64,000 nt of DNA from Halarcobacter sp. (GCA_963676565.1 OY781089.1:1888001-1952000); one strand, 5' to 3'; shown: positions 33,601 to 50,446, counted from the first letter of the stretch. Numbers and translations: made by a program. Notes: generated by a model not told the origin, from the letters alone.

Positions 33601-36600
33601 TGAAGATGGAACAGTAAAATATACACCAAATGAAGACTTCAATGGAACAGATAGCTTTACATATACAAACGAAGAGGGAAACACAGAAACTGTAAATGTA
33701 ATAGTAGATCCAACAAATGATAATCCTATAGCCGTAGATGATGGTAATATCTCATCAGTTACGTACACAGTAAATGTAGACAATGTTCTAAATACAGATG
33801 CTTTTACCGTAAAAGCTTATAATAGTGAAGGAGTTGAAGGAGAATTAGCATTAAGAAAAGATTCAAGTCCTGAAGGTTTTGGTGTAGCTGGTGATGATGT
33901 TTCTAATGGAGCTTCTTCTGAAATTGGTGGTGAAGAGTATATTGCAATAGAATTCAAAGATGATATTCAAAGTGTTGATGTTTCTTTTGCTTGGATGGCA
34001 TCATCAGAAAATGCAGAAATTGGCTTTTATAAAGATGGTGTACTTATAGACACTCAGTACAAAATGGGTGGTACAGATAGAGTTGATGGACCTTATAATT
34101 ATGAAACTTCAGATGGACAAGCATTTGATGAAATTCGATTTGCCGGGTATGGAACAAATTCTGATTTCCTATTACATGAAATAACTGTAAATACAGTGGA
34201 TTCAACATTTGAAACAAATGAAGACACAGCAATTACTATTGATGTATTAGATAATGATACTGATGTAGAGGGAGATGAACTATCAATTATCCAAATCCAA
34301 GGGCAAGATGTAAGTACTGGTCAAACAGTTAATATCTCTGAAAATGGTGAAGTTATTGGTACAGCAAAAGTTGTTAATGGACAAATTGAGTTTACTCCTG
34401 GGGAAAATTTACAAAACCTTAGTGATGGTGAAAATCAAAATGTGACTTTTGATTATACTGTTAGTGATGGTAGTTTAACTGATACTGCAAATGTAACAGT
34501 TAATGTTACAGGAATAACAGATAACTTTGTTCCAACAAGCGAAGATGAATCTCAGTCAATCAAGTTTGAAAGTTTAAATGAAATTGATACAACATCAACT
34601 AATCTTATAATTACTCTAGATACTTCAGGTTCAATGTCTATGGAAGATTATGGAGGGGTTGTTACATTAGATGATGGATCAACTACAACAAGATTTGAAA
34701 TTGCAAAAAATTCATTAATTGATACAATAGAAGCATATAAAGAACAAGGTTCAATTGATGTAAACTTAACATTATTTGGAAGTTCAGGAGCAAACATTGG
34801 ATGGATGAGTTCAGATGAAGCAATCACCTATTTAGAAAGTCTATCAATGGATCAAAATGGAGACTTATTAAAAGATGGAAATGATTATAATGTTTCGGGA
34901 AATGGTACTGATTATTATGAAGCAATTACTGCAACAGATAATATTGATTTTAGTGGTCATCCTGCAGATAAGAATGTGGGTATATTTATATCTGATGGTG
35001 ATCCAACAGAAAATTGGTGGATGGTAAATAGTGAATATGATTCAGCAATTCAAAACTGGAAATCTTTTATTGATAATAATAATATTGATTTAAGTGTTTA
35101 TGGAATAGGTGAAAATGTAAGTTCTTCTTACCTAGACATTATTCAAGTTACTGATGGTAAAGTTGCCTCAATTATTACAAATGAAGCAGATATGTCAGAT
35201 ACATTAGTTGCTGAAGCAATTTCTAAAAGTGTAAGTGGGAATATTTTAGATAATGTTAGTGGTGGAGATGGAGATATATCAATCGTAAAAATAACTATTG
35301 ATGGCGTTGATTACACTGCAAGTGATATGCCTATAACAACACCTGATGGTGCAACATTAAATGTTGACTTCTCAAGTGGTAACTATACATATTCTGCTAA
35401 GGCAAATTTATTTACTGAAGATACTACAGAAACATTTATCGTTACAGCTTCAGATGAAGATGGTGATGAAACAAACTTTAATGTACATATAAATATAGAT
35501 GCTGCAGACTCACAAAATTATATTCAAAGTGACTATGATTACTGGGCTGATAATGAAAATATAGATGGAACAGTAAACAGTGATTATATTAATATTGGAA
35601 CGGGAAATAATAAAACTATTAATGCTGGTGATGGAGATGATATAATTGATACACCAATACAAGTCGGAAATAATTTAGGTACAGGTCATATTATTGATGG
35701 AGGAGAAGGAAACGATAAGTTAATTATTGATGATGTATTAGATAGTGGTTCTTATAAATATGAAATTACAGCTAATGGAGACGGAACATTTGATATTGAA
35801 AAAATTGGATACAATGATTATAGTCAATGGTCTTTAAATCATTATGCCGTTACAGTTGATAGTATAGAAGCAATAGAGTTTACTGACAAAACTTTTGTAT
35901 TAAATGATTCTGGTGATGCTTTTGTTGAAAGTACAGACAGTAGTGCCGATGACTTACTAGTAGCAACTTTAGTTGATGGTATCGTAGAAGGTGCTTATTA
36001 TGAAACTTCTTCAGGAGTAACAGGATACACAGATGAAAATGGTAACTTTAACTTTAGAGAAGGGGATTCTGTAACATTTAGTGTTGGTGGAGTAGTTTTA
36101 GGTACTGCAACAGCAGAAGATATCGCTTCAGGTCAAACTTTCTTACAAGATATAGCTGATGTAGATAGAACAGATTTAAATGATGAGTACCTAGAAAACA
36201 TGGCAGTATTCCTACAATCTATTGACACAGCAGATAGTGGTGATGATATTGTTATTACACAAGCTATGAGAGATGCCCTTGCTGACGTGACAATAGACCT
36301 TACAACTGCAACAGAAGAGGAAATTAAATCTTTAATTGAATCAATTGGTGGAAACTATGTAGGTGAAGATGCAGCAATGGTTCACGTTCAAGAGATGCTT
36401 CAAGAGTATGCAGGTATAGATGAATCTGAGTTTGATGAAAGAATATCTGATGATACATTAACTGCAACATTAGGAAAAGAACCACAAGCAGGAATTGAGT
36501 TTACAACTTCTTCAGGAGTTTCAGGAACTACAAATGATGATGGAAGTTTCTTCTATAATGAAGGAGATGAAATCACATTTACAAAAGATGGAGAAGTATT

Positions 36601-37027
36601 ATCAACAATAGATTCAAATGCCATTGGTGATGATTCATTAATTACATTTAATGAACTAGAAAGTTTAAATCAAACAGAAATAGACTTTGACAATCTTGAA
36701 CTTGATTTTGATAATTTAAATGAGATTACAGATAGTGATGATACTACAGTTTACGAAAAAGATGAGTCTTTAGAAGATAAAGAAATCGCTATGGAAGATA
36801 TGCTTACAAGTGAAGACTCTGATTCTTCTTTATCAACTTTACTAGGTGAAACAGAAGAGGATAGAAATATCACTTCGCTAGATGAACTTAAAACCGAAGA
36901 AACAACTACTCAAGATGATGGAAATGATGAATATTGCCCATTTAAAGCTTTAGAAGAAAGTTCTGGAAATCTTATTTCAAATATTGAAGCTGATGACACA
37001 ACAGATATAGATGATCATAATTCATAA
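21671..37027 (+). CDS. Giant T1SS-secreted RTX adhesin (LapA/Bap-like), 5118 aa
   Basis: Retention-module-like N-terminus, VCBS/Ig-like repeats (TVTGTNDA), 34 cadherin-like 105-aa repeats, Ig-like domains, vWA with MIDAS (DTSGS..T..D) and RTX nonapeptides (INAGDGDDI, IDGGEGNDK). Adjacent to the T1SS genes. Confidence 0.92.
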   Translation: MAIARITDIRGLVSLENGSSEEILKNKDVISEHGGLLTITEFANIVFDDGREVEVTGPVTFNLDSSFFNEITFEDSITQISDFASLDYINNELDENIVEPQTEDSTLEQNNAAINIQTEQIDTQLNNQNTELVEENDSEFTQTQTTIEFEDNNEEEPVLDNETNEVPIANSEVNELNEDTIINGQIDFFDPDGTATVSVDGDIPTGLTLNPDGTYEFDASSYDSLTEGERQVIEVPLTVTDNNGATTNTTLTITVTGTNDAATVSSATANLIETDTALTTSGTLTSTDVDNADNTFIANTIVGANGTFTIDENGNWDFTANSAFNELNTGSTLSETFTVSSIDGTESTVTVNIAGTNDAMTGFEMNEVNNFTEDSTSAGDTVTTVKTAPSDEDGGDITYSISDTTNYAINETTGEVTLTEAGANLVNSGQELPAFNVTATSAGVDGSSQTVQNLDPAVTTVNDAMTGFEMNEVNNFTEDSTSAGDTVTTVKTAPSDEDGGDITYSISDTTNYAINETTGEVTLTEAGANLVNSGQELPAFNVTATSAGVDGSSQTVQNLDPAVTTVNDAMTGFEMNEVNNFTEDSTSAGDTVTTVKTAPSDEDGGDITYSISDTTNYAINETTGEVTLTEAGANLVNSGQELPAFNVTATSAGVDGSSQTVQNLDPAVTTVNDAMTGFEMNEVNNFTEDSTSAGDTVTTVKTAPSDEDGGDITYSISDTTNYAINETTGEVTLTEAGANLVNSGQELPAFNVTATSAGVDGSSQTVQNLDPAVTTVNDAMTGFEMNEVNNFTEDSTSAGDTVTTVKTAPSDEDGGDITYSISDTTNYAINETTGEVTLTEAGANLVNSGQELPAFNVTATSAGVDGSSQTVQNLDPAVTTVNDAMTGFEMNEVNNFTEDSTSAGDTVTTVKTAPSDEDGGDITYSISDTTNYAINETTGEVTLTEAGANLVNSGQELPAFNVTATSAGVDGSSQTVQNLDPAVTTVNDAMTGFEMNEVNNFTEDSTSAGDTVTTVKTAPSDEDGGDITYSISDTTNYAINETTGEVTLTEAGANLVNSGQELPAFNVTATSAGVDGSSQTVQNLDPAVTTVNDAMTGFEMNEVNNFTEDSTSAGDTVTTVKTAPSDEDGGDITYSISDTTNYAINETTGEVTLTEAGANLVNSGQELPAFNVTATSAGVDGSSQTVQNLDPAVTTVNDAMTGFEMNEVNNFTEDSTSAGDTVTTVKTAPSDEDGGDITYSISDTTNYAINETTGEVTLTEAGANLVNSGQELPAFNVTATSAGVDGSSQTVQNLDPAVTTVNDAMTGFEMNEVNNFTEDSTSAGDTVTTVKTAPSDEDGGDITYSISDTTNYAINETTGEVTLTEAGANLVNSGQELPAFNVTATSAGVDGSSQTVQNLDPAVTTVNDAMTGFEMNEVNNFTEDSTSAGDTVTTVKTAPSDEDGGDITYSISDTTNYAINETTGEVTLTEAGANLVNSGQELPAFNVTATSAGVDGSSQTVQNLDPAVTTVNDAMTGFEMNEVNNFTEDSTSAGDTVTTVKTAPSDEDGGDITYSISDTTNYAINETTGEVTLTEAGANLVNSGQELPAFNVTATSAGVDGSSQTVQNLDPAVTTVNDAMTGFEMNEVNNFTEDSTSAGDTVTTVKTAPSDEDGGDITYSISDTTNYAINETTGEVTLTEAGANLVNSGQELPAFNVTATSAGVDGSSQTVQNLDPAVTTVNDAMTGFEMNEVNNFTEDSTSAGDTVTTVKTAPSDEDGGDITYSISDTTNYAINETTGEVTLTEAGANLVNSGQELPAFNVTATSAGVDGSSQTVQNLDPAVTTVNDAMTGFEMNEVNNFTEDSTSAGDTVTTVKTAPSDEDGGDITYSISDTTNYAINETTGEVTLTEAGANLVNSGQELPAFNVTATSAGVDGSSQTVQNLDPAVTTVNDAMTGFEMNEVNNFTEDSTSAGDTVTTVKTAPSDEDGGDITYSISDTTNYAINETTGEVTLTEAGANLVNSGQELPAFNVTATSAGVDGSSQTVQNLDPAVTTVNDAMTGFEMNEVNNFTEDSTSAGDTVTTVKTAPSDEDGGDITYSISDTTNYAINETTGEVTLTEAGANLVNSGQELPAFNVTATSAGVDGSSQTVQNLDPAVTTVNDAMTGFEMNEVNNFTEDSTSAGDTVTTVKTAPSDEDGGDITYSISDTTNYAINETTGEVTLTEAGANLVNSGQELPAFNVTATSAGVDGSSQTVQNLDPAVTTVNDAMTGFEMNEVNNFTEDSTSAGDTVTTVKTAPSDEDGGDITYSISDTTNYAINETTGEVTLTEAGANLVNSGQELPAFNVTATSAGVDGSSQTVQNLDPAVTTVNDAMTGFEMNEVNNFTEDSTSAGDTVTTVKTAPSDEDGGDITYSISDTTNYAINETTGEVTLTEAGANLVNSGQELPAFNVTATSAGVDGSSQTVQNLDPAVTTVNDAMTGFEMNEVNNFTEDSTSAGDTVTTVKTAPSDEDGGDITYSISDTTNYAINETTGEVTLTEAGANLVNSGQELPAFNVTATSAGVDGSSQTVQNLDPAVTTVNDAMTGFEMNEVNNFTEDSTSAGDTVTTVKTAPSDEDGGDITYSISDTTNYAINETTGEVTLTEAGANLVNSGQELPAFNVTATSAGVDGSSQTVQNLDPAVTTVNDAMTGFEMNEVNNFTEDSTSAGDTVTTVKTAPSDEDGGDITYSISDTTNYAINETTGEVTLTEAGANLVNSGQELPAFNVTATSAGVDGSSQTVQNLDPAVTTVNDAMTGFEMNEVNNFTEDSTSAGDTVTTVKTAPSDEDGGDITYSISDTTNYAINETTGEVTLTEAGANLVNSGQELPAFNVTATSAGVDGSSQTVQNLDPAVTTVNDAMTGFEMNEVNNFTEDSTSAGDTVTTVKTAPSDEDGGDITYSISDTTNYAINETTGEVTLTEAGANLVNSGQELPAFNVTATSAGVDGSSQTVQNLDPAVTTVNDAMTGFEMNEVNNFTEDSTSAGDTVTTVKTAPSDEDGGDITYSISDTTNYAINETTGEVTLTEAGANLVNSGQELPAFNVTATSAGVDGSSQTVQNLDPAVTTVNDAMTGFEMNEVNNFTEDSTSAGDTVTTVKTAPSDEDGGDITYSISDTTNYAINETTGEVTLTEAGANLVNSGQELPAFNVTATSAGVDGSSQTVQNLDPAVTTVNDAMTGFEMNEVNNFTEDSTSAGDTVTTVKTAPSDEDGGDITYSISDTTNYAINETTGEVTLTEAGANLVNSGQELPAFNVTATSAGVDGSSQTVQNLDPAVTTVNDAMTGFEMNEVNNFTEDSTSAGDTVTTVKTAPSDEDGGDITYSISDTTNYAINETTGEVTLTEAGANLVNSGQELPAFNVTATSAGVDGSSQTVQNLDPAVTTVNDAMTGFEMNEVNNFTEDSTSAGDTVTTVKTAPSDEDGGDITYSISDTTNYAINETTGEVTLTEAGANLVNSGQELPAFNVTATSAGVDGSSQTVQNLDPAVTTVNDAMTGFEMNEVNNFTEDSTSAGDTVTTVKTAPSDEDGGDITYSISDTTNYAINETTGEVTLTEAGANLVNSGQELPAFNVTATSAGVDGSSQTVQNLDPAVTTVNDAMTGFEMNEVNNFTEDSTSAGDTVTTVKTAPSDEDGGDITYSISDTTNYAINETTGEVTLTEAGANLVNSGQELPAFNVTATSAGVDGSSQTVQNLDPAVTTVNDAMTGFEMNEVNNFTEDSTSAGDTVTTVKTAPSDEDGGDITYSISDTTNYAINETTGEVTLTEAGANLVNSGQELPAFNVTATSAGVDGSSQTVQNLDPAVTTVNDAMTGFEMNEVNNFTEDSTSAGDTVTTVKTAPSDEDGGDITYSISDTTNYAINETTGEVTLTEAGANLVNSGQELPAFNVTATSAGVDGSSQTVQNLDPAVTTVNDETVVVEDNVTTSEDIAINIDVLVNDTDEEGNISPVVSVTQGSNGTVTINEDGTVKYTPNEDFNGTDSFTYTNEEGNTETVNVIVDPTNDNPIAVDDGNISSVTYTVNVDNVLNTDAFTVKAYNSEGVEGELALRKDSSPEGFGVAGDDVSNGASSEIGGEEYIAIEFKDDIQSVDVSFAWMASSENAEIGFYKDGVLIDTQYKMGGTDRVDGPYNYETSDGQAFDEIRFAGYGTNSDFLLHEITVNTVDSTFETNEDTAITIDVLDNDTDVEGDELSIIQIQGQDVSTGQTVNISENGEVIGTAKVVNGQIEFTPGENLQNLSDGENQNVTFDYTVSDGSLTDTANVTVNVTGITDNFVPTSEDESQSIKFESLNEIDTTSTNLIITLDTSGSMSMEDYGGVVTLDDGSTTTRFEIAKNSLIDTIEAYKEQGSIDVNLTLFGSSGANIGWMSSDEAITYLESLSMDQNGDLLKDGNDYNVSGNGTDYYEAITATDNIDFSGHPADKNVGIFISDGDPTENWWMVNSEYDSAIQNWKSFIDNNNIDLSVYGIGENVSSSYLDIIQVTDGKVASIITNEADMSDTLVAEAISKSVSGNILDNVSGGDGDISIVKITIDGVDYTASDMPITTPDGATLNVDFSSGNYTYSAKANLFTEDTTETFIVTASDEDGDETNFNVHINIDAADSQNYIQSDYDYWADNENIDGTVNSDYINIGTGNNKTINAGDGDDIIDTPIQVGNNLGTGHIIDGGEGNDKLIIDDVLDSGSYKYEITANGDGTFDIEKIGYNDYSQWSLNHYAVTVDSIEAIEFTDKTFVLNDSGDAFVESTDSSADDLLVATLVDGIVEGAYYETSSGVTGYTDENGNFNFREGDSVTFSVGGVVLGTATAEDIASGQTFLQDIADVDRTDLNDEYLENMAVFLQSIDTADSGDDIVITQAMRDALADVTIDLTTATEEEIKSLIESIGGNYVGEDAAMVHVQEMLQEYAGIDESEFDERISDDTLTATLGKEPQAGIEFTTSSGVSGTTNDDGSFFYNEGDEITFTKDGEVLSTIDSNAIGDDSLITFNELESLNQTEIDFDNLELDFDNLNEITDSDDTTVYEKDESLEDKEIAMEDMLTSEDSDSSLSTLLGETEEDRNITSLDELKTEETTTQDDGNDEYCPFKALEESSGNLISNIEADDTTDIDDHNS
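22739..33448 (+). repeat. Tandem array of 34 x 315-bp units
   Basis: The unit AATGATGCTATGACTGG(C/A)TTTGAG...GTTACAACAGTA recurs every 315 nt from 22739; (33451-22741)/315 = 34. The only variation seen is one synonymous C/A site. Confidence 0.95.
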
Positions 37028-37100: not shown

Positions 37101-37176
37101 GACCCTGTCGTCTAGTGGCCAAGGACATTTGGATTTCCTCCAAAGAACGTAGGTTCAAATCCTACTGGGGTCGCCA
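37101..37176 (+). tRNA. tRNA-Glu(UUC) with atypical anticodon loop
   Basis: Acceptor GACCCTG/TGGGGTC, D-arm GTCT..AGGAC, anticodon stem TTTGG/CCAAA with loop ATTTCCT (anticodon TTC), 4-nt variable loop, T-arm GTAGG-TTCAAAT-CCTAC, discriminator G and encoded CCA. Confidence 0.88.
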
Positions 37177-41737: not shown

Positions 41738-42844
41738 ATGGATATTAGTGTAAATGCAGGACCAAGAGCTATTAATGGTTTTGCTCTACAGAGGAATACT
41801 GCACTATTTTTATTATTAGATAATTTTATTGATAAATTTAAAGATAAAGAATATTTTATAAGTTTAGAACATCATGATGATTTTTTATTTTGTTTTTTTG
41901 ATTCAAAAAATGATGTTGAGTATATTGAGGCATATCAATCAAAAAAGAAATCTCCTGACGTATGGAAAATAAATGATGAATTACTTGAAATCATTAATAA
42001 GCTTTTAGAAACGGGGAATAAATTACTAGAAGATTCAATTAATAAAAGTATAAACTATAAACATTCTTTATTTTTTTCATCTAATAGTACAATATTTTTG
42101 GAAGAAAAAATAAAAAAAACTAAAACTACTTCTTCTAAATCAATTAATAAATCGATTAATGAAGAAGAAAGTGTTATATCATTTAAAGATTTAGATATAG
42201 AGTTGCAAAATAAAATAAGAAAAAAGCTAAAAGACTTTAGTTTAACAGATGAACAAGAAAAAGAATCAAACAATTTAAATTTTATTTATATTGCTTTTAC
42301 CAGAAAAGACAAAGAACAACAAAATCAATTGCATGGAAAACTTCAAGAGGTATTTAAAGAAGATATTTATGATTACAGAGCAGCTTTAGATGCACTAATG
42401 TATTTATTTAGAGAAATAGAGGCTACATACAATCAAGGACATAAAGCAAAATTACTTGATAAAACTAAAAGAGTTTCTAGTAAAACAATTAATAAAACTA
42501 TGAAAATATTAACTACTAAATCAAAAGCATTTGATTATTGGAGAAGAGAAGCAAAGAATATTTCTAAAGCATTATTAATCAAGCCTTATGAAAAAGAAGA
42601 TTTTGAAGAATATTTTAAATCTTCTTTTGAGTTATTTAAAAGTATTGAAGAAGCAGAGCATAGAAAGATTTTTAAATTTGTAGATGAAAACTATTTAGAT
42701 TGTAAATCTATTATTGAAGAAGATTGTGTCTTAGAATTGCTTGAAAAGTTTAAACAAGATAAAAATACATATTTTGAAGATATACAGTTAAAGGCAGTGA
42801 TATATGCATCATATTTTGAAGCAATAAATAAAAAGGAAAATTAG
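41738..42844 (+). CDS. Cap4/DUF4297-like PD-(D/E)XK nuclease, putative Lamassu effector LmuA
   Basis: N-terminal AGPRAINGFALQ, EHHDDF and AYQSKK match the DUF4297/Cap4 nuclease pattern. Directly upstream of an SMC-like ATPase. Confidence 0.7.
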   Translation: MDISVNAGPRAINGFALQRNTALFLLLDNFIDKFKDKEYFISLEHHDDFLFCFFDSKNDVEYIEAYQSKKKSPDVWKINDELLEIINKLLETGNKLLEDSINKSINYKHSLFFSSNSTIFLEEKIKKTKTTSSKSINKSINEEESVISFKDLDIELQNKIRKKLKDFSLTDEQEKESNNLNFIYIAFTRKDKEQQNQLHGKLQEVFKEDIYDYRAALDALMYLFREIEATYNQGHKAKLLDKTKRVSSKTINKTMKILTTKSKAFDYWRREAKNISKALLIKPYEKEDFEEYFKSSFELFKSIEEAEHRKIFKFVDENYLDCKSIIEEDCVLELLEKFKQDKNTYFEDIQLKAVIYASYFEAINKKEN

Positions 42845-42845
42845 T

Positions 42846-44582
42846 ATGAAGAAAACAATGGTAATTAAAAGGTTTTTTGCTTATTCTGAAGTTAATAATA
42901 AATATTTTAATGCAAACTTTATTGATGGAGTAAATATTGTTTATGGCAAAAATACTTCTGGGAAAAGTACACTCTTACAATCATTACTTTATACTTTTGG
43001 AATAAATGATGAGATAACAAAATTAAAAGATGTTTTAGATGAAAAAGTTATTTTTAGAATAGATTTTGATTTAGTTAGTGATAGCATAGAACATGTAAGT
43101 ATTGTTAGAGATGATGAGCTTATAATAATTAAAAGAGATAATATACCTATTAAGAAATTCATAGGTATAAGTGGTGATAAATCAGCGGAACATAAAGCTT
43201 TGAAGTTATATTTAGGAGAACTATTTAATTTTACTTTACATTTGGAAAGTTCTGGTGAATATAAACAAGCCTCTATAGAGTCTATGTTTTTACCTTATTA
43301 TGTGGCACAAGATGTGGGATGGGTATATAGACATAAATCATTTAGAGGATTGGATTTTATAAAAAACTTTAAAAGGGATTTTTTTGACTATTATTTAGGA
43401 ATCATTAATGATTATGATAGGGAAGAAAAAACTAAATTAGAAAAAGAAAAAGCTGAATTTGAAAATGAAATTAAGTTTTTATCTAATTTTGAAAGAAAAA
43501 GTGATGATATTTTATTATCTAAATTAAAGGATGAAAAATTTGTTATAGAAGCTAATAAATATATAGATGAATACACTAAAAACAAAACAGAACTAATAAA
43601 ACTTGAGAAGGATTATATTCTTAAATCAAATAAACTTTCTTATTTAGAAGAAAGAAAAAAAATTTTAAATAAAGTAAAAACTGCATTAAAGAAACAAGTT
43701 CCTTTAGAGTGTAATTGTCCTACATGTAATCAGAAATTACCTAATAACATTGAAGCAATATATACATATTATCAAAATATTAATGATAATAATAAACAAA
43801 TTAGTGATATCAATAAAAAAATAGAAGAATTAAAGAAGCTTAAAGGAACTATTAATTCCTTAGAAAAAAAGATTCAAGAATTAAAAACTTTAATTTTCAA
43901 AGATTATGAGATTTTATCAAAATATCAAATTGATGAATTAAGCTTTGAAACATGGATCACTAATAAAACTAATGTAAAATTATCTGAAAATATAGAACAA
44001 AAAATTGGAAAAATAGTAATTGAACTTGATAAAGTGGATGAGAAATTAAAAGCATTTAAAACTGATAAGGAAATATTGTCAGAACGTAGTAAAATGGATT
44101 ATAAGTTTAAAATTTATTTTGAACGATATCTTAAGGATTTAGGTGTTAAAGAGTTTGATAATGATAGGTTTCTTCTATTATACAAAATTCCTGCATTTCC
44201 AAGACAAGGTGTAGAACTTTTAAAAACCTTACTCGCTTATAATTTTGCATTTAATAAGATAATTGAAGAAACTAGTTATGTACATAGATTCCCCTTTTTA
44301 CTAGATGCAATTTTTGAGGGTGACTTTGAAGATGATAATAGAGAAAAAGTATTAAGTTTTATTAGTAAAAATTATCCATCTGATACTCAACTAATTTTTT
44401 CAATAGCTGACTCAAAAAACAATCAAATTTCAGTAAATGATTATAATGAAAAATTTTTTCATAAAAATGCTAGTCTTATATGTATTGGAAATAATGAAAA
44501 TGAGAGAGCTTTTTTAAGTAAATATCAAAATGAATTTGATGATTATTTGGATGAGACGTTAGAACTTATTAATTATATTTAA
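42846..44582 (+). CDS. SMC/Rad50-like ABC ATPase, putative Lamassu sensor LmuB
   Basis: Walker A GKNTSGKS, YVAQDVGW Q-loop, coiled coil with a CPTC Zn hook and FLLDA Walker B; 578 aa. Confidence 0.75.
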   Translation: MKKTMVIKRFFAYSEVNNKYFNANFIDGVNIVYGKNTSGKSTLLQSLLYTFGINDEITKLKDVLDEKVIFRIDFDLVSDSIEHVSIVRDDELIIIKRDNIPIKKFIGISGDKSAEHKALKLYLGELFNFTLHLESSGEYKQASIESMFLPYYVAQDVGWVYRHKSFRGLDFIKNFKRDFFDYYLGIINDYDREEKTKLEKEKAEFENEIKFLSNFERKSDDILLSKLKDEKFVIEANKYIDEYTKNKTELIKLEKDYILKSNKLSYLEERKKILNKVKTALKKQVPLECNCPTCNQKLPNNIEAIYTYYQNINDNNKQISDINKKIEELKKLKGTINSLEKKIQELKTLIFKDYEILSKYQIDELSFETWITNKTNVKLSENIEQKIGKIVIELDKVDEKLKAFKTDKEILSERSKMDYKFKIYFERYLKDLGVKEFDNDRFLLLYKIPAFPRQGVELLKTLLAYNFAFNKIIEETSYVHRFPFLLDAIFEGDFEDDNREKVLSFISKNYPSDTQLIFSIADSKNNQISVNDYNEKFFHKNASLICIGNNENERAFLSKYQNEFDDYLDETLELINYI

Positions 44583-44606: not shown

Positions 44607-44697
44607 GATAACGATAACTTTCTTTTAAATTAGATAGATTACAGTATTGCAAAGTGCAATATTTATAAGTAAAGATATTTTTTAATGTTATTATATT
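44607..44697 (+). repeat. Dispersed ~90-bp intergenic repeat, copy 1
   Basis: Aligns with 48536-48622. Contains the palindrome TATTGCA-AAG-TGCAATA and an extended -10-like TGTTATTAT. Confidence 0.75.
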
Positions 44698-44766: not shown

Positions 44767-45165
44767 TTGGAACAAGATTATAACAACTGGAACAATATTA
44801 AAAAAGAAATTGCAAAAGATAATATATCTGTAGGATTTAAAAATAGAGATATATTTTATATGAATATGGGCAAAAATATTGGTTTTGAACAAGATGGCAA
44901 AGGTAAAAACTTTGTTCGTCCTGTAGTCGTTGTGAAAGGGTTCAATAAAAATATGTTTTTTGGTATTCCTTTATCTACAAAAATAAAAGAGGGTAAGTTT
45001 TATTATAGATTTTCATTTTATAAAAAAGATAAAGAAGTAGAAAATATTGCTTTGTTATCTCAAATGAGACTTTTCAGTACAAAAAGACTTTTAAATAAAA
45101 TTGGAATGATGAATATTGGGGATTTTAAAAATATGAAAAATAAATTTAAAGAATTGATAGATTAA
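44767..45165 (+). CDS. Orphan PemK/MazF-family endoribonuclease toxin
   Basis: G(K)NIGFEQDGKG..FVRPVVVV, GIPLST and LSQMRLFSTKRL motifs. TTG start. No protein antitoxin ORF adjacent. Confidence 0.8.
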   Translation: MEQDYNNWNNIKKEIAKDNISVGFKNRDIFYMNMGKNIGFEQDGKGKNFVRPVVVVKGFNKNMFFGIPLSTKIKEGKFYYRFSFYKKDKEVENIALLSQMRLFSTKRLLNKIGMMNIGDFKNMKNKFKELID

Positions 45166-45259: not shown

Positions 45260-46735
45260 ATGAACCTATCTAAATCCCTCTACACAAAAGGTATCCAATG
45301 CCCCAAAGCACTTTGGCTTAAAAAATATAAGCCAAGTGTTCTAACACCACCAGATGAACAAGCCCAAGCTATATTTGAAACTGGAAATATAGTAGGGGAT
45401 TTAGCTTGCCAGCTTTTCCCTGATGGTAGGGAAGTGGCATATACTACAAGTTATGATGAGATGATATATACTACAAAAGAGTGGATGGAAGAGGGTGTAT
45501 CAAATATCTATGAAGCTACTTTTAGCTATGAGGGCATACTTATCATGGTAGATATTTTAAAAGTAGAAAGTGATGGTGTATCTATCTATGAGGTTAAAAG
45601 TTCTACTGAGGTAAAAGATATTTATATTCATGATGTATCTATTCAGTATTATGTTTTACAAAACTTAGGCTTTAGTATAAAAAGTGCAAGTGTAGTGCAT
45701 ATAAACAATGAGTATGTAAGATGTGAGTCTTTAGAGTTATACAAGCTTTTTAAGATAGTTGATGTCACAAGTGAAGTACAAAGCTTACAATCAAATATCC
45801 CAAATATATTAAAAGAGTTTGAAATCTATTTAGAAGATAAAGTAAATGAGCCAGATATAGATATAGGAAAACATTGTAATAAACCTTATGAGTGTGATGC
45901 TAAAAATTATTGTTGGAAAGTACAAAGGCAGATACCTGAGTACTCTATCTTTAATATTTTCAATCTAGGAAGTAAAAAGCAAGTGGAATTATACAATCAA
46001 GGTATCATAGATATAGAAGATATCCCAGTAGATTTTGATATGACTGCAAACCAAAAACAAGCAGTAGAAAACTACAAATCAAAAGCAAGCTATATAGACA
46101 AAGAAAATATCAAAGCCTTTTTAGAAAACCTCAGATATCCAATCTATCACTTAGACTTTGAAACCTACCAACAAGCCATACCACAATACAAAGGTATAAA
46201 ACCCTTCGAGCAAATCCCTTTTCAATACTCACTTCATATAGAGTATGAAGATGGTACTTTGGAGCATAAAGAGTATTTGAGTGAGGATAGTGTAGATAGT
46301 AGATATGAATTAGCACAAAAACTATGTGAAGATATCCCAAGTGATGTTACAGTATTAGCTTACAATATGAGTTTTGAAAAAGGTGTGATAAAAAGACTAG
46401 CAAACCTTTTCCCTGACCTAAGCTCACACCTACTAGCTATAAATGAAAATATGCAAGACCTAATGCTACCTTTCCAAAAAAAGTGGTATCTAACACCAAG
46501 TATGAAAGGAAGCTACTCTATAAAGTATGTATTACCAGCACTTGTACCAGAGTTTGAAAAAGCATATAAAGAGTTAGAAGGTGTACAAAATGGAAGCCAA
46601 GCTATGAATGCCTTTACAAATCTAAGTAAACTAGATGAGGTAAGTAAACAGAAGATGAGAACTTCACTTTTCGAGTATTGTAAACTTGATACGTTAGCTA
46701 TGGTGAAGATATTAAATAAATTGAAGGGAGTTTAA
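45260..46735 (+). CDS. DUF2779-like protein: Cas4/AddB-type Fe-S PD-(D/E)XK nuclease fused to a DEDD/RNase H-like domain
   Basis: LSKS..QCPK (Cys1), DIL..EVKSS, HC..YEC...YC (Cys2-4), then LDFET, YNMSFE and YCKLD exonuclease motifs. Confidence 0.75.
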   Translation: MNLSKSLYTKGIQCPKALWLKKYKPSVLTPPDEQAQAIFETGNIVGDLACQLFPDGREVAYTTSYDEMIYTTKEWMEEGVSNIYEATFSYEGILIMVDILKVESDGVSIYEVKSSTEVKDIYIHDVSIQYYVLQNLGFSIKSASVVHINNEYVRCESLELYKLFKIVDVTSEVQSLQSNIPNILKEFEIYLEDKVNEPDIDIGKHCNKPYECDAKNYCWKVQRQIPEYSIFNIFNLGSKKQVELYNQGIIDIEDIPVDFDMTANQKQAVENYKSKASYIDKENIKAFLENLRYPIYHLDFETYQQAIPQYKGIKPFEQIPFQYSLHIEYEDGTLEHKEYLSEDSVDSRYELAQKLCEDIPSDVTVLAYNMSFEKGVIKRLANLFPDLSSHLLAINENMQDLMLPFQKKWYLTPSMKGSYSIKYVLPALVPEFEKAYKELEGVQNGSQAMNAFTNLSKLDEVSKQKMRTSLFEYCKLDTLAMVKILNKLKGV

Positions 46736-46736
46736 A

Positions 46737-47153
46737 TTGGAAGAAAAAAAAGAAGAGAATAAAAATATTTTAGAAATAGAATGTCCCCATTGTAGTGAGG
46801 CAAATACAATAAAACTGTCAAATGAAATTAAATGTAAAAAATGTAATAAAACATTACAAGGATTTAAATATAAAAGTATTATATTAAGTGGATTAACAAC
46901 TTTAATTATAGGATCCGGAATTGGTGTTACAGCAGATGCTTATTTAAATATTAATAGAGCATCAGTTAAAACTGAATATAAGATGATGAAAACATGTATT
47001 AGTAATCATGGGAATTATAAAAGTGTAAGAGATAATTGTGCTTGTGCAGTTGAATCAATGCTTGGAGTTATAGATGCACAAAAAGCTAGACTTTATTCAG
47101 GTGAATGGTTAGAAAATATTTTAAATGAAAAATATAAAGATTGTAGGGACTAA
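46737..47153 (+). CDS. Hypothetical zinc-ribbon plus transmembrane protein
   Basis: CPHC...CKKC ribbon, hydrophobic helix (IILSGLTTLIIGSGIGVTA) and a Cys-containing C-terminal domain. TTG start. Confidence 0.65.
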   Translation: MEEKKEENKNILEIECPHCSEANTIKLSNEIKCKKCNKTLQGFKYKSIILSGLTTLIIGSGIGVTADAYLNINRASVKTEYKMMKTCISNHGNYKSVRDNCACAVESMLGVIDAQKARLYSGEWLENILNEKYKDCRD

Positions 47154-47482
47154 TCAAACCAATGTTCTGGTTTTTCATCATCTAAAAGTTCTTGAATAAA
47201 ATATGTTTCATTTAAGAACTTGTAAAAATCATTAAGTTGATTTATTGTTTCTCTTTGGAAATTTCTTTTTTCTTCTATGCCTTCTTTCCATCGTTCGATT
47301 TTTCTTTTTAAATTCTTTACTTCTGTATCTTCTTCAAGATGGATACTTAAATAAAATTTTGCAAAACCATATATATTGTTTGGTTCAAATTTATCTGTTT
47401 CTTGTATCTCTTTTTCAAATAAATTCCATAGATTTACAAATTCTTCATAATTAGAATTTTTTGTCCCCATTTTTGTCCCCAT
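47150..47482 (-). CDS. Hypothetical helical protein, putative DNA-binding regulator, divergent from the peptide/Thg1 operon
   Basis: 110 aa; begins in a 12-bp tandem duplication (MGTKMGTK). Function is inferred from position only. Confidence 0.55.
   Translation of the reverse strand: MGTKMGTKNSNYEEFVNLWNLFEKEIQETDKFEPNNIYGFAKFYLSIHLEEDTEVKNLKRKIERWKEGIEEKRNFQRETINQLNDFYKFLNETYFIQELLDDEKPEHWFD
47459..47482. repeat. Perfect 12-bp direct repeat TTTTGTCCCCAT x2
   Basis: Copies at 47459-47470 and 47471-47482; GC-rich core in an AT-rich divergent promoter region. Confidence 0.85.
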
Positions 47483-47545
47483 AATAATTGTTAATATTCT
47501 AAATAGTTATTTAAATAATAACTAAAAAATCAAAAGGAGAAGATT

Positions 47546-47686
47546 ATGTCAAACAATAATCATAAAGCAAATCAAGGAAATTCAAACAAAGGTACAAGTG
47601 GTACAAATAGTGCCTATGCAAAAGTTCATGGAAATAGAGGTACCCAAATGAATCCAAATAATACAAAAGGTTCAAGGGGTAAATAA
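47546..47686 (+). CDS. Unannotated 46-aa Asn/Gly-rich peptide
   Basis: AAGGAG RBS; MSNNNHKANQGNSNKGTSGTNSAYAKVHGNRGTQMNPNNTKGSRGK*. Its stop overlaps the next ATG (TAATG). Confidence 0.8.
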   Translation: MSNNNHKANQGNSNKGTSGTNSAYAKVHGNRGTQMNPNNTKGSRGK

Positions 47687-48477
47687 TGGACTTAAATAAA
47701 GAGTTAGAAACATTATTTGAAAAGTATAAAAGAATTGAACACGAATCATTAAAAATTGATATAGTTCCAGATAATAAATTTTTAGTTGTAAGGCTTGATG
47801 GATTTAAAGTAACAAAAAACTATTTAAAAGATGTTATTGTAAATGAAAAACTTACGAATGCTATGAACTATTCAATTAATCAACTTTTTAAAAGGTTTAG
47901 AACTTATTTTACTAATGAATATTCTTCTTCAATAATAGGGACATTTTATGCAAACGATGAAGTTTCAATAATCCTCTCTAATAAAATGAATTTATCAAAA
48001 GATACTTATGGGCGAAACCTAGAAATAAAAAGAGTAATGAAAGTTTGTACAATATTTGCAGGAGCAATTTCATCATTTATGACAGAAAAAATGAATGAAA
48101 TTTTATATTTTGATGCAAGACCATTAATATTAAGTCAAAATGAACTTGGAGAATATATTTATTCAAGGCAATTAGTGGCTACTAGATATGCTTACTGGAA
48201 AATATTAAGATTAAATAATATAGAAGGATGGGAACAGGATTTTTATAAAAAAGATTTATTGAATTCTAAAAATAAAGTTAGTGAAATAGGTAAACGACAG
48301 GATGCGAATAAAATTATTAATTCATATTCTTATAATTTGATTGATAATAATATTAAACCTTCTTTTGTTTCATATAATCTATTCAAAAAGTATAACAATA
48401 GTGATGAAATTCAGAAATCAATTGATGAAAAAATTAATCAAATTATAATGTCAAGAGAGAAAATAGTGAAAATTTAA
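47686..48477 (+). CDS. Thg1-like (tRNA-His guanylyltransferase family) 3'-5' nucleotidyltransferase, divergent
   Basis: VVRLDG (D38), FYANDEVSI (D91/E92), YFDARP and YIYSRQ correspond to the Thg1/TLP motifs RxDG, SDE, FDxR and YxxWRQ. Confidence 0.8.
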   Translation: MDLNKELETLFEKYKRIEHESLKIDIVPDNKFLVVRLDGFKVTKNYLKDVIVNEKLTNAMNYSINQLFKRFRTYFTNEYSSSIIGTFYANDEVSIILSNKMNLSKDTYGRNLEIKRVMKVCTIFAGAISSFMTEKMNEILYFDARPLILSQNELGEYIYSRQLVATRYAYWKILRLNNIEGWEQDFYKKDLLNSKNKVSEIGKRQDANKIINSYSYNLIDNNIKPSFVSYNLFKKYNNSDEIQKSIDEKINQIIMSREKIVKI

Positions 48478-48535
48478 CTAGCTAACACCTCTGAGGATGA
48501 ATCTCCACTTTTACTAAGGAAGCTCTTAGTGAATA

Positions 48536-48622
48536 GATAGCGATGACTATTTTAAATTAATAGATTATGATATTGCAAAGTGTAATACTTTTTAATAAAA
48601 ATATTTTTTTATGTTATCATTT
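48536..48622 (+). repeat. Dispersed ~90-bp intergenic repeat, copy 2
   Basis: GATAGCGATGACTATTTTAAATTAATAGATTATGATATTGCAAAGTGTAATAC...ATGTTATCATTT, homologous to 44607-44697. Confidence 0.75.
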
Positions 48623-48683
48623 ATGGATATTTCCTAAAAATAGAAAAACGATAAATATATTTATTTCAAAGTAGGGCAGTAAT

Positions 48684-49322
48684 ATGAATGAAGTAATAAT
48701 TGATGAAGATATAAAAAATAAAATCTATACTATAAGAGATATGCAAGTTATGCTTGATAGTGACTTAGCAAAACTTTATGATGTGGAATCTAAAAGACTT
48801 AATGAACAAGTAAAAAGAAATATTGCACGATTTCCCCAACAGTTTCGTTTTCAACTTACTGAAGAAGAATATCAAAACTTGAGGTCGCAATTTGCGACCT
48901 CAAGTTCAAATGATTCTTTAAGGTCGCAATTTGCGACCTTAGAAAATATGAGAGGAAAGCATAGGAAATATTTACCTTATGTATTTACAGAGCAGGGTGT
49001 TTCTATGCTTTCAGCAGTACTTAAAAGTGATAAAGCTATTGAGATAAGTATCCATATTATAAATAGTTTTGTTAAGATGAGACAATTTTTGTCACACAGT
49101 GGTGATGTATTTAAACGACTAGAATTAGTTGAAAAAAGGCAAATAACTTATGAAATAAAAACAGATAAAAAATTTGAAAATTCACATGATAGATTTTTGA
49201 TATTAGATGATAAAGAACTTTACCATATAGGAGCTAGTTTGAAAGATTTAGGTAAAAAGTGGTTTGCTTTTTCAAAGATGGATTTAAGAAGTTTTGATGT
49301 TTTAGAAAGGTTAGAAACTTGA
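48684..49322 (+). CDS. ORF6N-domain DNA-binding protein (probably with an internal deletion)
   Basis: IYTIRDMQVMLDSDLAKLYDVE..RLNEQVKRNIARFP..F.FQL and PYVFTEQGVSMLS; C-terminal HDRFLILD..YHIGASLKDLGKKWF. Confidence 0.85.
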   Translation: MNEVIIDEDIKNKIYTIRDMQVMLDSDLAKLYDVESKRLNEQVKRNIARFPQQFRFQLTEEEYQNLRSQFATSSSNDSLRSQFATLENMRGKHRKYLPYVFTEQGVSMLSAVLKSDKAIEISIHIINSFVKMRQFLSHSGDVFKRLELVEKRQITYEIKTDKKFENSHDRFLILDDKELYHIGASLKDLGKKWFAFSKMDLRSFDVLERLET

Positions 49323-49358
49323 TACTTTGGCTATGGTGAAGATATTGAAGAAGTTGAA
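49315..49358 (+). repeat. Diverged duplicate of the 3' end of the DUF2779-like gene
   Basis: 39/44 identical to 46682-46725; reads KLDTLAMVKILKKL. Confidence 0.85.
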
Positions 49359-49453
49359 AATTGAAATTTTCAACTTACATTTTTAGGTAATGTTATTATA
49401 ATCTTCTTTTACTATAGTGCAAATATTATATTATGCTTTATATGGAGAAAAAT

Positions 49454-50446
49454 ATGAATAATAAAAAAATACCATTATCTGTATTAGATTTAATTCCAGT
49501 AGGTGAGGGCTTCACCATACCACAAGCTATTGAAAACAGTACAAAACTAGCCCAAGGGGTTGAAAAGTTTGGATTTACTCGTTATTGGGTTGCGGAACAT
49601 CACAATTTCCCAGGAATTGCTAGTGCCGCTACTTCTGTTGTCTTAAGTTATATTGGGTCACAAACTAAAAACATAAGAATAGGTTCGGGTGGGATTATGT
49701 TGCCCAATCACTCCCCTTTAGTTATTGCAGAGCAATTTGGTACTTTGGAGTCTTTATATCCAAATAGAATAGATTTAGGACTAGGTAGAGCTCCTGGTAC
49801 TGATAGACAAACAATGATGGCATTAAGACGAGATATTAATAATGATGATTTTCCTTCGATGCTTAAATATTTACAATACTATTTATCAGATGAAGCAGGT
49901 AAAAAAGGGATAAAAGCAATACCCGGATTCGGATTAGATATTCCTATTTGGTTACTTGGTTCTAGTACCTTTAGTGCACAATTAGCTGCCCAAAAAGGTT
50001 TACCTTTTGTTTTTGCTTCACACTTTGCACCTGATTTGATGGATGATGCTGTAAGAATATATAAACAAAACTTTAAACCATCTGCTCAACTAAAAGAGCC
50101 TTATGTAATGGTTTGTATCAATATTGTATGTGCAGACACAAATGAAGAAGCTCAATATTTAGCCACAACTGAACTTCAAAAATTTCTTTATCTTCATAGG
50201 GGAGACAATAAACAATTACCAAAACCAACAGAAGACATGAATAGCTTATGGGAAGAGTGGGAAGAACGAGGTATAAGACATAAAACAAGAGAGTCTATCT
50301 GGGGAACACCAGAATATGTTAAAGAAAGACTTGAACGTCTTATTGAAAGAACTGGTGCAAATGAAATCATGGTAAACTCAATGATACATGATCCAGATAA
50401 AAGAATAAAATCCTATGAACTTATCTCAAAAGTTTGGTTTGAGTAA
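49454..50446 (+). CDS. LLM-class flavin-dependent oxidoreductase (luciferase-like, YhbW type)
   Basis: LSVLDL, RYWVAEHHN, IGSGGIMLPNH and DLGLGRAPG motifs. Start placed at ATG 49454 after GGAG. Confidence 0.9.
   Translation: MNNKKIPLSVLDLIPVGEGFTIPQAIENSTKLAQGVEKFGFTRYWVAEHHNFPGIASAATSVVLSYIGSQTKNIRIGSGGIMLPNHSPLVIAEQFGTLESLYPNRIDLGLGRAPGTDRQTMMALRRDINNDDFPSMLKYLQYYLSDEAGKKGIKAIPGFGLDIPIWLLGSSTFSAQLAAQKGLPFVFASHFAPDLMDDAVRIYKQNFKPSAQLKEPYVMVCINIVCADTNEEAQYLATTELQKFLYLHRGDNKQLPKPTEDMNSLWEEWEERGIRHKTRESIWGTPEYVKERLERLIERTGANEIMVNSMIHDPDKRIKSYELISKVWFE

Follow-up and report, generated by a model that had tools for sequence, protein, structure and literature searches.

Why should a bacterium keep a Thg1-like 3'-5' nucleotidyltransferase that it does not need for its tRNA-His? 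The question is raised by a 64,000-nt stretch of DNA from Halarcobacter sp. (GCA_963676565.1 OY781089.1:1888001-1952000), hereafter the window, in which an open reading frame (ORF) for a Thg1-like protein (TLP) of 263 amino acids (aa) starts on the stop codon of an unannotated ORF for a basic peptide of 46 aa. The sole tRNA-His gene of the genome encodes G-1 opposite C73, and strong matches to the TLP, which is single-copy within its own genome, were found in 6 of 184 Arcobacteraceae genomes, representing 4 of 22 genera; three more genomes, with 50-residue matches at E values of 2e-4 to 9e-4, were left out of this count. The enzyme is therefore not needed for tRNA-His. In this study, we find that the TLP gene is one occupant of an exchangeable effector slot in a small mobile four-gene cassette, whose other genes (the chassis) encode a Zn-ribbon protein, a protein of 110 aa (p110) and the peptide, and we weigh what such a cassette may do.

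Arrangement of the peptide and TLP genes

The peptide ORF (47546-47686, plus strand) is preceded by AAGGAG at 47534-47539, its ATG beginning 6 nt later. At 47684-47688 the two genes are joined by TAATG, in which the TAA of the peptide ORF (47684-47686) and the ATG of the TLP ORF (47686-47688) share one A. A purine-rich, Shine-Dalgarno-like AAGGGG stretch lies 5' of the TLP ATG. The p110 gene, seen both in the ORF listing and by direct reading of the window, runs divergently on the minus strand (Table 1).

The 263-aa protein is a member of the Thg1/TLP superfamily

Searched alone, the window protein matched the Pfam family Thg1 (PF04446) with an E value of 1.8e-5 and 25.1 bits, which is under the gathering score of 29.2. 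No NCBIfam family matched it, and PADLOC-DB v2.0.0 returned 0 families at E ≤ 1. The same Pfam model was matched by 68 of 68 members of the TLP family at E ≤ 0.001 (best 5.7e-17), and a profile of the family matched the solved TLP and Thg1 chains with E values of 5e-16 to 1e-13. In the alignment of the 68 relatives, R36, D38, G39, D91, E92 and D143 are invariant and E18, K119, S129, F142, R145, P146, Y157, R161 and K172 nearly so; the motifs RLDG (R36, D38, G39), D91-E92 and FDAR (F142, D143, R145) are all kept. R36-x-D38-G aligns with R28-I-D30-G, and D91-E92 with S-D75-E76, of the Bacillus thuringiensis TLP (BtTLP, 4kgk). The catalytic carboxylates D30, D75 and E76 of BtTLP, which correspond to D29, D76 and E77 of the human enzyme, are given together with the Arg of R-x-D-G in the active-site part of PMC3701042.

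The fold leads to the same assignment. The AlphaFold 2 model of the TLP (pLDDT 94.7, pTM 0.92) had 32 Foldseek matches at E ≤ 0.001; the 21 matches listed were all Thg1/TLP chains with a probability of 1.00, the best among them being 4kgk (E 6.8e-11). In VIA-align the Thg1/TLP chains were superposed with Z of 15.9-18.5 and a root-mean-square deviation of 2.8-3.3 Å over 192-206 residues, spanning 22-254, and the next unrelated chain reached a Z of 6.6. BtTLP (4KGK/4KGM) and the Methanosarcina TLP (5AXK-5AXN) have the same two-domain fold over residues 22-254 (Z 15.9-18.2), with sequence identities of the window TLP to the solved structures of 14-18%. About 22 N-terminal residues, which form a helix in the model, fall outside the aligned range.

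Eukaryote-type Thg1 enzymes carry a motif that reads HINNLYN. In the window TLP the HINNLY motif is missing, with SRQLVATRYAYWK occupying the corresponding region, and the HINNLYN-type motif is not found either, the region reading YIYSRQLVATRYAYWK. The Asn of this motif serves adenylylation (yeast N161, human N158), and other TLPs likewise do without the eukaryote-type motif, as set out in the portions of PMC3701042 that deal with it; the roles given there are for the same D/D/E metal-binding set and the R-x-D-G, S-D-E and F-D-x-R motifs that bacterial and archaeal TLPs share with the window protein. Members of the Thg1/TLP superfamily are homotetramers that add nucleotides 3'-5' to RNA 5' ends. 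Judged by sequence and by model, the 263-aa protein is a member of this superfamily with its active-site residues intact and a predicted activity.

Relatives of the enzyme are rare, with 8 in a word-indexed search of 5.8 billion proteins and 75 clusters at E ≤ 0.001 among 1.84 billion representatives. In a maximum-likelihood tree of 39 TLPs, two deep clades were obtained (99/99 support), and enzymes linked and not linked to the peptide are interspersed. The window enzyme lies in one clade and the enzyme of another peptide-bearing locus, L005, in the other; L005 is a long branch whose exact placement is unsure. Since these two enzymes fall in opposite clades, TLPs of different lineages have been set on the same chassis. 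A distant TLP of 226 aa was also seen in two genomes of another Campylobacterales family (L058 1315-1995; L059 1486-2166; E ~1e-15 to the family profile), where it has no peptide and its neighbours on either side are genes for a solute-binding protein and an outer-membrane-like protein. This TLP would seem to represent a separate lineage, outside any island.

The peptide is encoded by a conserved gene

In a DNA alignment of seven loci, the variable columns of the peptide ORF fall on 11 of 43 first, 9 of 43 second and 26 of 43 third codon positions. Because the variation is concentrated at third positions, the ORF is taken as a real coding gene. An RNA element in its place was ruled out by this coding-type pattern together with the Rfam search, which returned 0 matches at E ≤ 0.1 within 46500-49500. 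Four oligo-dT RNA runs, bearing the species label of one carrier of this DNA, had 0 reads on 46700-48700, which does not bear on whether the genes are expressed. The peptide was found by six-frame search in 22 of 184 Arcobacteraceae genomes. It contains no acidic residue, and H6, K7, N9, Q10, N12, N14, T17, G19, N21, N30 and Q34 are invariant in the alignment of 35 family sequences; its Tyr is not conserved, being N in L001, L005 and many other peptides. The window and L005 peptides are 85% identical, although the TLPs behind them sit in different deep clades.

A search of protein collections gave 35 peptide clusters of 33-68 aa, with named sources in Arcobacter, Sulfurimonas, Agaribacter, Aliivibrio, Shewanella and Psychroserpens. 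Several sources label the peptide 'alpha-amylase' and others call it hypothetical, and the ESM Atlas holds it only in unnamed 'hypothetical protein' clusters. The peptide is thus older and wider than the TLP.

Much of the original prediction for this locus, made before any database search, stands after these analyses. The unannotated ORF with its AAGGAG, coupled through TAATG to a 263-aa protein, lies exactly where it had been placed; the protein is indeed a divergent Thg1-like one that keeps the catalytic carboxylates and lacks HINNLY; the peptide ORF is conserved; and a housekeeping role is not required. The PF04446 search that had been suggested gave a divided answer, placing the whole family in Thg1 and leaving the window protein alone short of the cut-off.

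The effector slot is exchangeable

The 22 peptide-bearing loci were read directly and scanned with hidden Markov models (HMMs) built in this analysis. The position past the peptide stop is occupied by a TLP in six genomes (G000, G148, G101, G057, G028 and G012), by a HicA mRNA interferase of 75-77 aa in ten (G159, G049, G032, G133, G016, G003, G160, G062, G015 and G096, the last with a truncated peptide), by an NYN-domain protein in one (G059) and by an unassigned 117-aa protein in one (G167). The HicA matches (E 6e-11 to 1.6e-15) and the NYN match (E 1.9e-27) all exceed the Pfam cut-offs. HicA and most TLP genes begin at the peptide stop or a few nt from it. The 1-nt overlap of stop and start recurs in four of the six TLP loci and in most HicA loci, with L010 and L011 as exceptions; RefSeq annotation of a copy of the L010 lineage has the TLP begin 1 nt past the peptide stop. 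The NYN gene begins 44 nt past it.

The exchange can be read from two loci of one genus, L036 and L005, which are 95.9% identical over 1.6 kb, starting in the region of the Zn-ribbon gene and ending at a point that is exactly the peptide stop (L036 1-1638, L005 4331-5953). Beyond it L036 has the NYN gene (724 nt) and L005 the TLP gene (774 nt), which are unrelated, and the downstream dehydrogenase gene is again 94.4% identical. Another locus, L032, lacks an effector; its 92% match to the window extends up to 47668. In 10 loci the peptide has with it a divergent gene for an acidic p110-type protein (106-116 aa) and a convergent Zn-ribbon gene, irrespective of the effector, which is a TLP in the window, L001 and L005, a HicA in L037, L038, L039 and L047, an NYN protein in L036 and none in L032 and L045.

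Hence, the peptide does not belong to the enzyme in particular; it is an element common to the whole chassis and stands ahead of HicA and NYN RNases as well. The original prediction had treated peptide and enzyme as a unit; the coupling of the two genes is real, while the implied specificity of the one for the other is not. A scan of 27 ORFs flanking the HicA and other non-TLP loci detected a HicB domain in none of them, and therefore some part of the chassis must partner HicA.

The other chassis proteins and the spacer

The p110 protein is acidic (pI, the isoelectric point, 4.86). Its AlphaFold 2 model (pLDDT 79.5) consists of four helices and a disordered acidic tail at residues 94-107, and the C-terminal motif ELLxDExPEHWFD, ending in HWFD, is conserved. 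No match was obtained in Pfam at E ≤ 0.01, in NCBIfam at E ≤ 0.1 or in PADLOC or PHROGs, and the model had no Foldseek match at E ≤ 0.001 and no usable match in the ESM Atlas. The p110 family comprises 47 clusters, all hypothetical or misnamed, and those with a named source are all from Campylobacterota (Arcobacter, Aliarcobacter, Malaciobacter and Sulfurimonas). The protein had been taken for a divergent regulator. This is not supported, as nothing in it points to DNA binding, and an acidic four-helix protein matching no family in these searches takes the regulator's place. It is possible that the acidic p110 is a partner of the very basic peptide.

In one TLP lineage the place of p110 is taken by a conserved protein of ~530 aa (530 aa in L003/L010/L025, 531 aa in L004), encoded divergently from the peptide-TLP pair, which is not similar to p110 and matches nothing in Pfam or PADLOC. 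The idea that p110 is a piece of it was dropped, as BLASTP found nothing beyond chance (E 0.067).

The Zn-ribbon protein, which the original prediction had not counted in the cassette, has a CxxC...CxxC arrangement (C16/C19/C33/C36), a single hydrophobic helix (residues ~48-66) and a C-terminal part that contains Cys. It has weak, sub-threshold matches to Zn-ribbon families of Pfam and a weak match to HEC-08 in PADLOC-DB v2.0.0 (E 4.6e-4). Its family HMM places it beside the p110 gene in 10 loci (the window, L001, L005, L032, L036-L039, L045 and L047).

The spacer between the divergent genes is poorly conserved, with 40 of 53 columns varying in the seven-locus alignment. An 8-nt inverted repeat at 47504-47524 was considered as an operator and rejected, as it is not kept in L001, L005 and L038, and promoter-like hexamers in the spacer are no commoner than in shuffled sequence.

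Mobile or defence DNA around several TLP loci

Among 13 TLP lineages with a readable upstream region, the basic peptide lies directly upstream in seven: the window, L001, the L003/L010/L025 plasmid lineage, L004, L005, L011 and, frameshifted, L008. In one further lineage (L057) an acidic 48-aa ORF with the motif NHANQLNPNNDEYWNSRG takes the upstream place, and acidic NPNN-motif ORFs lie downstream of the TLP in L008 and L012. The window locus adjoins Lamassu, L004 adjoins NsnABC, L012 a type I restriction-modification system, L010 integrases and Fic, L008 a Phd antitoxin and L057 Xre-HTH and PIN genes. On a 140-kb plasmid of Aliarcobacter faecis the TLP locus adjoins a recombinase, an integrase and IS1380; RefSeq names the TLP there 'Thg1 family protein' and the peptide hypothetical. 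L005 is the exception, being a bare four-gene cassette amid housekeeping-like genes. The window and L001, from different genera, are 90.5% identical in nucleotide sequence over 3.2 kb, a likeness that reads as a sign of recent transfer. A phage origin of the TLP was rejected, as tblastn against 50,697 phage records gave no match and no viral contig was confirmed; the Thg1 family of PHROG matches the window TLP weakly (E 7.2e-5).

Within the window (Table 1), a block of ~2.6 kb (46726-49314) between two direct repeats holds the cassette and an ORF6N gene. SbcD/SbcC-like genes also lie upstream of the cassette. The setting that the original prediction had described is therefore upheld in each part: the Lamassu, PemK and DUF2779 neighbours by profile matches, the bounding of the block by a duplicated gene end by the 44-nt repeat at 89% identity, and the defence or mobile environment by several independent loci.

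Table 1. Features of the cassette and of its surroundings in the window.
Feature	Position	Strand	Remarks
Zn-ribbon membrane protein, 138 aa, TTG start	46737-47153	+	Chassis gene; convergent and overlapping with the 110-aa gene
p110, acidic helical protein, 110 aa	47150-47482	-	Chassis gene, divergent from the peptide
Divergent intergenic spacer, 63 bp	47483-47545	.	Contains AAGGAG (47534-47539)
Basic Asn/Gly/Lys-rich peptide, 46 aa, pI 11.3	47546-47686	+	Constant chassis gene; its stop codon is the start of the effector slot
Thg1-like 3'-5' nucleotidyltransferase (TLP), 263 aa	47686-48477	+	Effector in the slot; predicted from sequence and fold
ORF6N/KilA-N-type protein, 212 aa	48684-49322	+	Pfam ORF6N E 3.7e-34; PADLOC candidate PDC-S05 E 3.9e-80; PHROG anti-repressor E 2.2e-25
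Direct repeat, left copy, 44 nt	46682-46725	+	3' end of the DUF2779 gene; same match from L001 and L032
Direct repeat, right copy	49315-49358	+	89% identity to the left copy over 44 nt
Lamassu LmuA	41738-42844		E 5.5e-126
Lamassu LmuB	42846-44582		E 6.8e-223
PemK/MazF-family gene	44767-45165		Confirmed neighbour, 2.5 kb from the TLP
DUF2779 gene	45260-46735		Confirmed neighbour
tRNA-Glu gene	37101-37176		At the start of the Lamassu/cassette region

Two further observations concern the surroundings. An element of 71 nt occurs upstream of the PemK gene (44624-44694) and upstream of the ORF6N gene (48550-48620), the copies being 79% alike, and in L001 a PemK gene comes after the ORF6N gene; these two genes may make up one unit or have one in common, rearranged in the window. 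Farther upstream, an ORF of 5118 aa (21671-37027, plus strand) contains 34 tandem copies, 99% alike, of a 315-nt (105-aa) repeat at 22738-33455 and has the look of a gene for a giant repetitive surface protein. The 96-aa ORFs found antisense to it every 315 nt are by-products of this repeat.

Peptides outside the family and acidic small ORFs

Beyond the Arcobacteraceae, the peptide was found on plasmids of Vibrio, Klebsiella and Comamonas. Its motif is embedded in proteins of 237-245 aa on the Vibrio plasmids (L052 2845-3558; L054 2785-3522) and in a 93-aa ORF within a resistance-cassette array on the Klebsiella plasmid (L051 2917-3198), and on the Comamonas plasmid it is a stand-alone 50-aa ORF beside a HipA module (L053 2959-3111). 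Stand-alone and embedded occurrences such as these speak for a peptide that is functional in itself, beyond serving as a leader. A chromosome-size Neisseria record filed among the plasmids also gave a 35-residue match, at 63% identity, in an unannotated stretch.

Very acidic small ORFs (40-48 aa) with NPNN(D) motifs were seen beside HicA or TLP genes at five loci (L033 1889-2011; L049 1113-1250; L008 1049-1186; L012 6765-6893; L057 2211-2357). Those of L033 and L049 follow HicA. In L030 and L039 HicA is followed by other small ORFs that are acidic, and in L047 one lies farther upstream, between the peptide and p110 genes. The basic and acidic peptides share a common 'NQ.NPNN' core, and no Pfam family covers either. 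L033 also encodes, at 2243-2539, a peptide paralogue of 98 aa with an acidic C-terminal fusion, 0.6 kb downstream of the peptide-HicA pair. Six-frame translation of 48440-48700 found no small acidic ORF 3' of the window TLP.

A putative RNA-directed effector module

What could the TLP do in this slot? The slot otherwise holds two kinds of RNase toxin, the TLP lies in mobile or defence DNA and is sporadically distributed, and its active site is intact; the most economical reading is therefore a toxin-antitoxin-like or abortive-infection module in which the TLP is a putative effector that modifies RNA 5' ends. We regard this reading as evenly balanced between being right and being wrong. The effector gene, placed at the peptide stop, is probably translated by termination-reinitiation. 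The chassis would restrain the TLP through the peptide and/or the acidic p110, and phage infection or loss of the element would release it. The released TLP would then modify RNA 5' ends, in the likeliest case by 5'-adenylylation or by extending tRNA 5' ends with the 3' N73-CCA overhang as template, so that the acceptor end would be locked and translation stopped.

MenT and AbiEii are nucleotidyltransferase toxins with a Pol-beta fold that block the acceptor 3' end of tRNA. The 5'-end chemistry proposed here draws on that analogy and on the published activities of Thg1 and TLP enzymes. What is common is the proposed logic only, in which nucleotides are added to a tRNA end and charging is prevented, an analogy and not a membership. 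The present enzyme has a Thg1 palm and a predicted 5'-end chemistry, and no relation in sequence or fold to MenT or AbiEii was found. Thg1 enzymes can template 3'-5' addition on nucleotides at the tRNA 3' end (in the account of PMC8127993), and every characterised TLP carries out templated addition on tRNA-His and other tRNA substrates (in that of PMC6471195).

Several observations weigh against this proposal. The biochemically studied TLPs are all repair or maturation enzymes, as far as the relevant parts of PMC3061083, PMC4820378 and PMC6471195 go, and no PADLOC model matches the enzyme, the peptide or p110. The slot has no coupled gene in 4 of the 22 genomes (G153, G172, G170 and G010), and 4 of the 13 TLP lineages have no NPNN-motif peptide (L002, L006, L007/L014 and L009, the last with a different Gly-rich small ORF upstream of the TLP). 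Outside the family the peptide is alone or fused into larger proteins, and it is rare, with 2 carriers among 401 genomes sampled from the class around G184. It is strongly basic, unlike most protein antitoxins. Its mean identity is 0.79 across loci with different effectors (55 pairs) and 0.81 within loci with the same effector (36 pairs), and the peptides of the TLP locus L005 and the NYN locus L036 are 100% identical. Since the peptide does not co-vary with the effector, an inhibitor specific for the effector fold is unlikely. Here lies the main difficulty, as three unrelated folds would be hard to inhibit specifically with one basic peptide that hardly varies.

A related proposal, which we put forward tentatively and hold well short of even, is that the basic NHKANQ...GNRGxQxNPN peptide (42-49 aa), which is nearly invariant, acts as a universal socket by which RNA-targeting effectors of unrelated structure, of the HicA, NYN and Thg1-like kinds, are licensed or restrained without co-evolution, the TLP being a toxin whose action would be to extend or cap tRNA 5' ends. 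Such a peptide would act on the RNA substrate that the effectors share, or through the acidic p110 or acidic NPNN partners.

Alternative explanations

The alternative that survives best, although we think it rather unlikely, is that the TLP repairs RNA 5' ends, as a protective cargo against ribotoxins of phages or competitors or against the island's own RNases, with the peptide as a cofactor or merely co-expressed. The complete active-site set is conserved, a PemK/MazF RNase gene lies 2.5 kb off, and the characterised bacterial and archaeal TLPs all mend 5'-truncated tRNAs in vitro (in the parts of PMC3061083, PMC4820378 and PMC6471195 cited above). The Thg1 genes of jumbo phages, which likewise place a Thg1-family enzyme in a biological conflict, are interpreted as RNA repair in the relevant part of PMC7824862; they differ from the present case in that no relative of the window TLP was found in the 50,697 phage records. 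Unlike the known TLPs, the window TLP has its gene after that of a peptide, in a slot open to exchange and set in mobile or defence DNA, and its neighbours indicate no repair role: the HicA and NYN RNases that use the same slot are toxins rather than enzymes of repair, and no RNA ligase, kinase/phosphatase or other repair partner was seen in the loci scanned. The clade is also distant from the studied TLPs, being under the Pfam cut-off and at 14-18% identity to the solved structures.

If there were no functional link at all, the peptide would be an independent small protein and the site past its stop a recombination hotspot for unrelated accessory genes. This explanation would account for the genomes in which no coupled gene follows the peptide, for the stand-alone peptide of the Comamonas plasmid, for the Vibrio plasmid proteins that embed the motif and for the missing co-variation with the effector. 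The two matches in the class around G184 also stand alone, as an adjacent effector gene was seen at neither; the L055 match lies on a strand and at a place without a listed ORF. It does not account for the contents of the slot, as 17 of the 18 occupied slots hold an RNA-acting enzyme (HicA 10, TLP 6, NYN 1), nor for the HicA and most TLP starts at or near the peptide stop, which suggest selection for coupled translation. Moreover, a HicA without a neutraliser should not persist, and the flanking ORFs scanned contain no HicB. TLPs off the chassis, too, have small NPNN-motif ORFs beside them (upstream in L057, downstream in L008 and L012). On balance we consider an unlinked peptide unlikely.

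An improbable alternative is that the peptide frame is a translational gate or sensor, in which a run rich in Asn, Lys, His and Gln codons sets the effector level by stop-start coupling, for example through the state of the tRNAs for NAN codons. The TAATG overlap in the HicA loci and most TLP loci, the invariant residues, mostly N, H, K and Q, and the absent co-variation with the effector fold are all as such a gate would have them. Against this, the conservation is at the amino-acid level, across phyla and with synonymous change, and includes G16, T17 and G19, and the presence of the motif inside larger proteins and in stand-alone genes points to a function of the peptide itself. The AAGGGG stretch before the TLP ATG also means that reinitiation may not be obligatory.

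Least probable is that the TLP makes a nucleotide signal or nucleotidylates the peptide as a protein primer, the role once proposed for the peptide on account of its Tyr. In its favour are the relation of the Thg1 palm to GGDEF and Cas10 cyclase domains (PMC12657218, in a passage citing Anantharaman et al. 2010) and the invariance of T17 in the peptide. Against it, the TLP retains both domains of the Thg1/TLP architecture rather than the palm alone, the Tyr is not conserved, the same peptide precedes HicA and NYN RNases, which are not nucleotidyltransferases, and no gene for a signal-binding effector was recognised in the cassette.

Relation to known systems

We rate the cassette as a toxin-antitoxin or abortive-infection-type module with new parts. 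It has the adjacent, co-oriented genes with overlapping stop and start of a generic type II toxin-antitoxin system. The nearest comparison is with HicAB, as a HicA domain stands at the position of the window TLP in 10 of the 22 sister genomes, in a short operon with the toxin start at or near the stop of a small upstream gene. The difference is that no HicB was recognised and the upstream partner is a basic peptide of 42-49 aa. An HMM scan found no HicA in the window's own genome, so that the unit is not a HicAB module, although its chassis is common to HicA-bearing ones. The HicA-peptide arrangement is not among the 14 HicA contexts in the part of PMC10865869 to which the comparison applies. 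In our literature search, neither the peptide nor a toxin or defence role of any Thg1-family enzyme was described, and in the portions of the Thg1 and anti-phage literature that it covered Thg1 is mentioned only as a fold relative or in phage RNA repair.

The biological substrates of bacterial Thg1-like proteins are not settled, in the account of PMC6471195. The cassette offers a direct genetic handle on the natural function of a TLP, as it puts the enzyme where RNase toxins are otherwise encoded. Widespread as it is, the peptide family has gone unrecognised and bears the wrong name 'alpha-amylase'; its chassis, with effectors that can be swapped, may be a new place to look for small toxin-control parts and for other RNA-modifying effectors. 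If the socket proposal is true, its control logic would match no described type of toxin-antitoxin system. If the TLP is indeed a toxin, 3'-5' polymerisation would for the first time have a biological role in conflict and not in the maturation or repair of RNA.

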